DNA from: Shigella phage sb3
Reading direction: 5' to 3' (one strand)
Sequence record: PQ666541
DNA length: 64,000 nucleotides
Shown: piece after piece, positions 28,120-28,180 of the stretch
How the letters are laid out: each line of letters begins with the position of its first letter
How positions within the stretch are numbered: the first letter of the stretch is position 1
Translations under genes and position numbers: made by a program
The notes under the pieces: generated by a model
What the model was told of the DNA's origin: nothing
Seen by the model: the letters and a program-made list of their open reading frames with translations, nothing else
The model's database searches: none

Positions 28120-28150
28120 TTTGTGTTCCTCATGTTATGTCAGTAAGATT

Positions 28151-28180
28151 ATTATAACACAACACGAGGGACTTGTAAAC
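28151..28180 (-). promoter_or_regulatory. Early-type promoter GTTTAC-18 nt-TATAAT (minus-strand sense)
   Basis: -35-like GTTTAC at 28175-28180 and -10 TATAAT at 28151-28156; part of a 53 bp segment repeated at 43884-43936. Confidence 0.6.

Follow-up and report, generated by a model that had tools for sequence, protein, structure and literature searches.

A 54-nt sequence that occurs twice in the genome of Shigella phage sb3, once upstream of alt.-3 and once upstream of alc, places an early promoter within an RNA hairpin predicted to hide the Shine-Dalgarno (SD) sequence of the downstream gene. We put at roughly 60% the probability that this cassette confines expression of both genes to the early period of infection, that its position at alc is ancestral, and that it was copied from there to the position before alt.-3. 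The window, by which we mean the whole stretch of DNA that was analysed (64,000 nucleotides of sequence record PQ666541), belongs to a Tequatrovirus and is 97–98% identical to many T4-like coliphages and Shigella phages; its genes were named by comparison with annotated relatives. The cassette is a real, ancient and well-constrained regulatory element, and the case for its acting as a gate is built on the repeat itself, its predicted fold, its conservation, the covariation within its stem and its phylogenetic distribution. It represents no new class of element, and the T4 reference genome has contained its sequence for decades. Neither an SD-occluding hairpin nor the repeat at alc or alt.-3 is described in the T4 reviews, RNA-seq paper and omics paper that we consulted; the older catalogues of early promoters were beyond our reach and may contain an earlier description.

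The first-pass annotation of the window had pointed to a 53-bp duplication in the same orientation, identical at 50 of 53 positions. The duplication is real and its identity runs one base further, yielding a 54-nt direct repeat on the minus strand, in which 28180..28127 (copy A) and 43936..43883 (copy B) agree at 51 of 54 positions (Table 1). Copy A reads GTTTACAAGTCCCTCGTGTTGTGTTATAATAATCTTACTGACATAACATGAGGA, and copy B is the same sequence with TACAGTAGT replacing TATAATAAT; the layout of the repeat, with the alternatives of A and B in the middle, is GTTTACAAGTCCCTCGTGTTGTGT-TATAATAAT/TACAGTAGT-CTTACTGACATAACATGAGGA. Its ends are sharp, the first identical base being the G of GTTTAC and the last the end of GAGGA, and the flanks are unrelated. 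No comparable repeat pair appeared in 100 dinucleotide-preserving shuffles. All three differences between the copies had been assigned to the -10 hexamer: two do lie inside it (T>C at position 3 and A>G at position 5), but the third falls two bases downstream (AAT versus AGT).

Table 1. Positions in the window of the two cassettes, their component signals and the adjoining genes
Feature	Position	Strand	Remarks
Copy A, 54-nt cassette, -35 through SD	28127..28180	-	upstream of alt.-3
Copy A, -35 hexamer TTTACA	28174..28179	-	GTTTAC early consensus starts at 28180
Copy A, -10 hexamer TATAAT	28151..28156	-	preceded by TG (extended -10); apical part of hairpin
Copy A, predicted transcription start	28144	-	A, 7th base after -10; from promoter geometry
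Copy A, predicted RNA hairpin CCCUCGUGUUGUGUUAUAA...UUACUGACAUAACAUGAGG	28128..28169	-	dG -20.4 kcal/mol, z -5.95
Copy A, Shine-Dalgarno GAGGA	28127..28131	-	GAGG predicted to pair with spacer CCUC in read-through RNA
alt.-3 (96 aa)	27829..28119	-	gene served by copy A
Second alt paralogue, full-length (685 aa)	28180..30237	-	upstream of copy A
Copy B, 54-nt cassette	43883..43936	-	between rnlA (gene 63) and alc
Copy B, -35 hexamer TTTACA	43929..43934	-	first T counted at 43935; GTTTAC starts at 43936
Copy B, -10 hexamer TACAGT	43907..43912	-	TG-extended; apical helix of hairpin
Copy B, predicted transcription start	43900	-	from promoter geometry
Copy B, predicted RNA hairpin	43884..43925	-	dG -23.3 kcal/mol, z -5.99
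Copy B, Shine-Dalgarno GAGGA	43883..43887	-
alc (inhibitor of host transcription, 168 aa)	43372..43878	-	gene served by copy B
rnlA (gene 63)	43940..45100	-	upstream of copy B

A consensus scan bears out the proposal that the segment combines a promoter with a ribosome-binding site, since it has the form of a T4 early promoter of the sigma-70 type followed by an SD; the GTTTAC and 18-nt spacer originally described become, in standard sigma-70 terms, TTTACA, a 17-nt spacer and a TG-extended -10. Judged by consensus match only, copy A (TTTACA-17-TATAAT) scores 11/12 and copy B (TTTACA-17-TACAGT) 9/12. The late-promoter motif TATAAATA is present in neither cassette. Identity between the copies exceeds, as had been suggested, what a promoter consensus would produce: the six other early promoters that the window has on this strand (GTTTAC-N17/18-TAnnnT, with the first G at 55833, 52532, 51806, 40609, 36917 and 36525) share just 18–30 of 54 positions with copy A, and a search for further copies returned exactly two blastn-detectable ones in each complete Tequatrovirus genome listed. 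The pair thus stands as a specific duplication rather than as two members of a promoter family sharing the full sequence.

What the first-pass annotation missed is that 42 of the 54 bases (positions 12–53) form a predicted RNA hairpin, in which CCCUCGUGUUGUGUUA pairs with UGACAUAACAUGAGG to make a long stem with a short apical helix on top. Its 5' arm is the promoter spacer, its apical part contains the -10, and its 3' arm is formed by the leader, with the SD GAGG at the end; this pairing of the spacer with the leader and SD explains why conservation of both extends beyond the promoter. None of 200 shuffles folded as well as the cassette hairpins, and Rfam gave no match at gathering score anywhere in the window. 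The differences between A and B also alter the apical helix, and along the series of -10 variants TATAAT, TATAGT and TACAGT the match to the consensus falls as the stability of the hairpin rises (-20.4, -22.0 and -23.3 kcal/mol).

The fold is predicted to have opposite consequences for two kinds of RNA. In the read-through context the predicted probability that the SD is unpaired is 0.00, whereas leader RNA beginning at the predicted +1 lacks the 5' arm and is unstructured (0 kcal/mol for copy A, -1.8 kcal/mol for copy B). We compared the energy needed to open the region from SD-2 to AUG+5 in read-through RNA and in RNA from the own promoter: predicted costs were 14.9 versus 2.1 kcal/mol at copy A (alt.-3) and 16.9 versus 3.7 kcal/mol at copy B (alc). 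Opening energies were used because the own-promoter probability of 0.07 for an unpaired SD at alt.-3 is misleading, reflecting weak pairing with the coding start. At five of the six other early promoters in the window the two costs differ by only -1 to +2.3 kcal/mol; at the sixth, at 36917 before gene 30.8, they are 10.4 and 0.3 kcal/mol.

When its flanks are included, the hairpin of copy B is extended by pairing of AAGUCC with GGACUU to an interrupted helix of about 22 bp (-28.6 kcal/mol). This length is near that of RNase III substrates, as known from the intergenic sites of T7, and the hairpins might be places where RNase III or another double-strand-specific activity separates the upstream message from alc or alt.-3. 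We consider such a processing site very improbable, because copy A and most of the other genera have shorter stems (9–17 bp) and the T4 reviews consulted describe no processing at these positions.

The design was compared across genera at alc, for which the rnlA-alc intergenic regions of other genera were taken from a phage collection by tblastn. In Gelderland-, Karam-, Jiaoda-, Braga-, Dhaka-, Winkler- and Kanagawavirus (CIP9) the region contains, in order, GTTTACA, an anti-SD arm, a -10 in the loop and an SD arm. The arm sequences differ among these seven genera while their complementarity is kept (for example UCUCCAUUUGGUUGUGU / ACACUAACCAAAUGGAGA, UCCUCAUCAG / CUGAUGAGGA and ACCUCUCAUUUUU / AAAAUGAGAGGU), and the opening energy of read-through RNA exceeds that of own-promoter RNA by a predicted 7.4–14.6 kcal/mol. 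When the seven are aligned on a 17-pair helix, 87% of cells are paired, as opposed to 41–52% when the 3' partner is slid; compensatory changes affect 10 of the 17 stem pairs, and none of 500 shuffles reached the covariation score. From genus to genus the SD and its partner change together, GGAG:CUCC in some and GAGG:CCUC in others (columns 10–52 and 11–51). This count covers only the seven non-Tequatrovirus genera, in the same register as a structure-blind MAFFT alignment, and the sample is small, with rows related by descent. Two other alignments were dropped: a MAFFT alignment of seven modules, in which the 3' halves were shifted, and a covariance-model alignment of 18 modules, in which the Tequatrovirus rows were three columns off and slides of 0 and +3 both gave ~63%. 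The Tequatrovirus stem starts 3 nt further from the -35 than it does in the other genera.

Variation within Tequatrovirus was surveyed in 22 copies from the window and from related genomes or contigs, which comprise 11 variant sequences. Only one site varies in the 3' arm and SD, with a G>A in the alt.-3 copy of T4 that turns U.G into U-A, and the 5'-arm variants C>U and G>A yield U.G and A-U pairs, although three of the seven 5'-arm substitutions break one pair. All 11 natural variants are predicted to retain the hairpin, at -17 to -23 kcal/mol, and to keep GAGG within its pairing.

An inverted repeat lying over the -10 and the start site has the geometry of a typical operator, and how T4 early promoters are shut off is not completely understood (PMC3014915), which leaves some room for an element at the level of DNA: the repeat, centred on the -10 and +1, could bind a dimeric protein as its operator, or form a cruciform, and so help to switch the early promoter off. 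Several features make this improbable. The arms differ between genera with complementarity kept, and so offer no conserved recognition sequence; the 3' arm always ends at the SD; the natural variants create U.G pairs; and the Tequatrovirus stem relies on G.U pairs, its predicted fold being 6–11 kcal/mol better on the sense than on the antisense strand (-28.6 versus -17.9 and -21.4 versus -15.8 kcal/mol). The G.U pairs and the better sense-strand fold point to an element that acts as RNA rather than as DNA.

Occlusion of the SD is common at alc without being universal: of nine alc lineages outside Tequatrovirus, seven have the SD inside the stem. The alc gene of Mosigvirus is preceded by a promoter and no hairpin, and at alc of Kanagawavirus KLB31 the hairpin brackets the -10 and ends 5 nt before the SD, from which we conclude that occlusion is not indispensable. 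In Gaprivervirus VR7 the alc region is rearranged and holds no promoter-hairpin cassette; between rnlA and the full-length alc of this phage there is a 78-aa ORF annotated as similar to Alc (positions 160–393 of the fetched region), apparently a partial duplication of alc.

Hairpins are also found around other early promoters of the window. Inverted repeats bracket the -10 at 55833, 51806, 40609 and 36525 (minus strand; position of the G of GTTTAC), with AGATTT/AAATCT, TAGGGTA/TACCCTA, GGTAGAG/CTCTACC and GGTACAGG/CCTGTACC as their arms, and these stems do not include the SD. A putative third instance of gating occurs upstream of gene 30.8 (~36858–36917, minus strand), where the SD, AAGGAG, is overlapped by CACAAACAAAGG, the predicted partner of the spacer segment CCUUUGUG; the sequence of this promoter is unrelated to the cassette at alc and alt.-3 (28/54). 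Early promoters of Tequatrovirus may share, as a general design, a -10 placed within the loop of a hairpin, and the stems that surround the -10 at several of them without touching the SD suggest that the hairpin may have a more general role, to which SD pairing is an add-on.

The main competing explanation is that the cassette is an insulator of the kind proposed for promoter-early stem-loops (PeSLs): the stem-loop would attenuate or terminate transcription from upstream, or protect the 3' end of the upstream mRNA, the promoter would restart transcription, and pairing of the SD would be incidental. Most PeSL stem-loops occupy the -35/-10 interval or extend over the -10, and one of them reduced expression of a downstream lacZ about as much as the rrnB T1 terminator (PMC2839356). 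The five other early promoters in the window at which inverted repeats bracket the -10, mostly without the SD, and the KLB31 hairpin that excludes the SD, agree with this explanation. However, a T run is absent after both cassette hairpins, and the terminator scan called no terminator-like site at or before either cassette, on which grounds a role as terminator was rejected from the sequence; moreover, SD and anti-SD covary across genera, which a pure terminator does not require, and the SD is within the stem in seven of the nine alc lineages. We therefore think it unlikely that insulation is what the cassette is for, but attenuation or insulation could coexist with a translational gate.

Both cassettes are intergenic, copy A extending from the stop of the alt paralogue towards the ATG of alt.-3 and copy B from the stop of rnlA towards the ATG of alc; the G of GTTTAC in copy A is also part of the TAG stop that ends the second alt paralogue, and copy B begins 3 nt past the stop codon of rnlA. 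In T4, T2 and T6, too, one copy precedes alt.-3 and the other alc, and those of T4 are identical to each other at 53 of 54 positions. A blastn search with a 101-nt query found 998 places in 500 related records, so that at most two of the 500 can be single-place records; among the records listed, complete genomes have two places each, and the one with a single place is a partial record of 113 kb. Judging from these matches, the cassette is apparently present in T4 and all its close relatives. Its presence in two copies in T4, T2, T6 and the complete genomes listed indicates that the duplication is old, is fixed in the genus and is no peculiarity of this genome. Protein searches of IMG/VR contigs recovered six loci for Alc and five for Alt.-3, all from near-identical Tequatroviruses.

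The neighbourhood of copy A has some features of its own. Where the window has the 685-aa second alt paralogue, which is also full-length in T2, T6 and vB_SsoM_113, T4 keeps only the fragments alt.-1 and alt.-2 (T4 15066–15451), and copy A lies directly downstream in both arrangements. The first alt gene (30241–32298, minus strand) is interrupted by in-frame stops at codons 301 (TGA, 31396–31398), 373 (TAA, 31180–31182) and 445 (TGA, 30964–30966), spaced exactly 72 codons apart, and is intact in T4, T6 and vB_SsoM_113. Over the 500 nt at 30930–31430 within it, none of 492 matching phage records exceeds 82.5% identity, as against 97–98% in the flanks; the gene could be a pseudogene, could contain an unusual mosaic segment or could reflect a sequence problem. 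At 27803–27824, between the convergent gene 54 and alt.-3, a perfect 9-bp G+C-rich hairpin with a T run on the plus strand looks, from its sequence, like a bidirectional terminator.

The situation at alt.-3 in other genera differs from that at alc. In Gapriver-, Dhaka-, Mosig-, Marfa-, Karam- and Gelderlandvirus the alt-alt.-3 region contains an early promoter and a leader ending in CATGAGGA with no occluding hairpin, and predicted opening energies differ by 0.9–2.9 kcal/mol. Kanagawavirus CIP9 is the only one of seven other genera to occlude the start of alt.-3: in this Enterobacter phage (~341–415 of the fetched region) the spacer segment GAAUGAACG is complementary to codons 2–4 (CGUUCAUUC), with a fold of -29 kcal/mol and an opening-energy difference of 10.8 kcal/mol, which on these predictions is an independent way of occluding the alt.-3 start in read-through RNA. 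Because the hairpin is present at alc in seven genera and absent at alt.-3 in six, the cassette is ancestral at alc and derived at alt.-3 of Tequatrovirus. The alt.-3 copy is thus most likely a transplanted alc cassette, a direction that we infer from this distribution. In the ancestor of Tequatrovirus the alc cassette would have replaced an ordinary promoter before alt.-3, probably through a short recombination patch between shared ends, as TAGTTTACA and CATGAGGA, which flank the replaced segment, are common to donor and recipient. A possible paralogy of the alc and alt.-3 modules of Mosigvirus was discarded as not significant, their gapped identity of 79% comparing with a background of 68% (maximum 81%) between any two modules. 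Upstream of alt.-3 in the six genera, and upstream of Mosigvirus alc, a short inverted repeat with a GGA(A/T) loop lies within the -35/-10 spacer (~340–370 of the fetched regions; e.g., CACC-AAGGAA-GGTG, GCAC-AAGGAA-GTGC and ACACA-TGGA-TGTGT); these repeats match the PeSL subclass whose stem-loop lies between -35 and -10.

Since the transplant, the two copies appear to have followed separate courses. Intragenomic identity between A and B ranges from 49/54 to 54/54, TACAGT is found only at alc and TATAAT only at alt.-3, and TTCCTTA occurs only in alt.-3 copies (T2, T6, bov9_1 and one IMG/VR contig). These locus-specific variants indicate that the copies evolve separately under constraint, with no sign of ongoing homogenisation or continual gene conversion. 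They also bear on a plainer alternative, in line with the first-pass annotation: a duplicated promoter-leader with no structural role, whose repeats would matter mainly as substrates for recombination or deletion between alt and alc. Both copies do score as promoters, and the early promoter and leader regions of T4-type phages have an extended consensus in common, any two modules showing about 68% gapped identity. The spacer and leader sequence, however, is not common to the other early promoters, covariation supports the stem, and variants confined to one locus speak against frequent exchange. A stretch of 15.7 kb separates the copies and holds DNA ligase (gene 30) and gene 31, both essential by established T4 genetics, which makes a viable deletion between the copies unlikely, and no fused single-copy genome was seen among the related records listed. 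That the cassette is nothing more than a duplicated promoter-leader is, in our estimation, barely credible.

The reading that we favour is thus of a gate that discriminates between RNAs by where they begin, and it is from the observations above that we infer where transcription starts, which RNAs read through, how translation responds, and the direction and mechanism of transfer. The 5' arm of the hairpin would serve as an anti-SD (CCCUC...). Long transcripts from upstream would contain both arms and fold, burying the SD and leaving the downstream gene untranslated; transcripts from the embedded promoter would start inside the loop or the 3' arm, lack the anti-SD arm and keep the ribosome-binding site open. 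For copy A, read-through could come from late or other transcripts of the alt genes, the late ones from the TATAAATA motif just upstream of alt (32326..32319); for copy B, it could come from early or middle transcripts through the nrd genes, denA and rnlA, with candidate promoters at 51806, 52532 and 54974. Synthesis of Alc and Alt.-3 would in this way be tied to the brief period in which early promoters fire, and such confinement fits what is known of Alc, which is made early and acts as infection begins (PMC2988021).

Should the gate work as predicted, it would provide a protein-free explanation for how Alc and Alt.-3 could be made only in the first minutes despite later read-through, and it extends the T4 logic of a promoter inside a hairpin from late to early genes. 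PeSL-type cassettes, so far discussed as promoter-terminator units or recombination sites, would gain a translational function. In the engineering of T4, moving or replacing these promoters would alter translation as well as transcription, and the gate would bear on the phenotypes of alt.-3, where mutants that escape the CmdTAC defence system arise (PMC11618068). A wider and more tentative proposal, to which we give somewhat less than even odds, is that Alc has been expressed throughout the history of the Tevenvirinae via a portable early-only gate, which would move between loci as patches of 40–50 nt; under this proposal, PeSL-like cassettes would convey translational timing in addition to a promoter and an attenuator, the gate moved from alc to alt.-3 in Tequatrovirus, and CIP9 alt.-3 and gene 30.8 of the window represent independent designs.

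Among known systems, the cassette resembles an intrinsic terminator in being a stable intergenic stem-loop at the end of an upstream gene, but it has no T run and is not called as one. A hairpin at the ribosome-binding site of mobE in phage Aeh1 was reportedly described by Gibb and Edgell in 2009; gene and sequence both differ from those of the cassette. PeSLs are closer, and the cassette fits their structural definition, having a promoter, a stable stem-loop, an intergenic position, and an SD and start codon at the 3' end. An early promoter of the sigma-70 kind and an SD at the 3' end are common to both, and a stem-loop that overlaps the -10 is among the commonest PeSL layouts; the T4/PST consensus of PeSLs, TTTACW-N17-TAYWAT, fits both copies, and PeSLs have been proposed to mediate events like the transplant of a cassette from locus to locus (PMC2839356, PMC4122927). 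PeSLs, like the cassette, are found as dispersed, near-identical, intergenic copies in direct orientation (Arbiol et al. 2010; Comeau et al. 2014). They are numerous, however, and enriched in hyperplastic regions and beside indels. The cassette departs from them in having just two copies, which flank a block of essential genes instead of ORFans in a hyperplastic region and involve no indel, and in a stem with neither G-run nor C-run and no T run after it. That stem also includes the SD, a feature not discussed in the passages on PeSLs that we consulted (PMC2839356, PMC4122927).

The nearest parallel in mechanism is offered by the hairpins of T4 e, soc, 49 and I-TevI, which bury the SD and/or AUG in long transcripts (PMC3014915, Uzan and Miller 2010). 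Their promoters lie in the DNA of the 5' arm or loop, their own transcripts lack the inhibitory arm and are translated, and temporal control is achieved without a protein factor (PMC3014915). In the cassette, too, the SD is predicted to be paired in upstream transcripts and RNA from the internal promoter to lack the 5' arm. The internal promoter of e, soc, 49 and I-TevI, however, is a late one (TATAAATA) that delays expression (PMC3014915), whereas that of the cassette is an early, sigma-70-type promoter, and as neither copy contains TATAAATA, the cassette is a variant of this type and no strict member of it. Its predicted effect is the mirror image of theirs: expression in the early period, and a block on expression from later read-through RNA.
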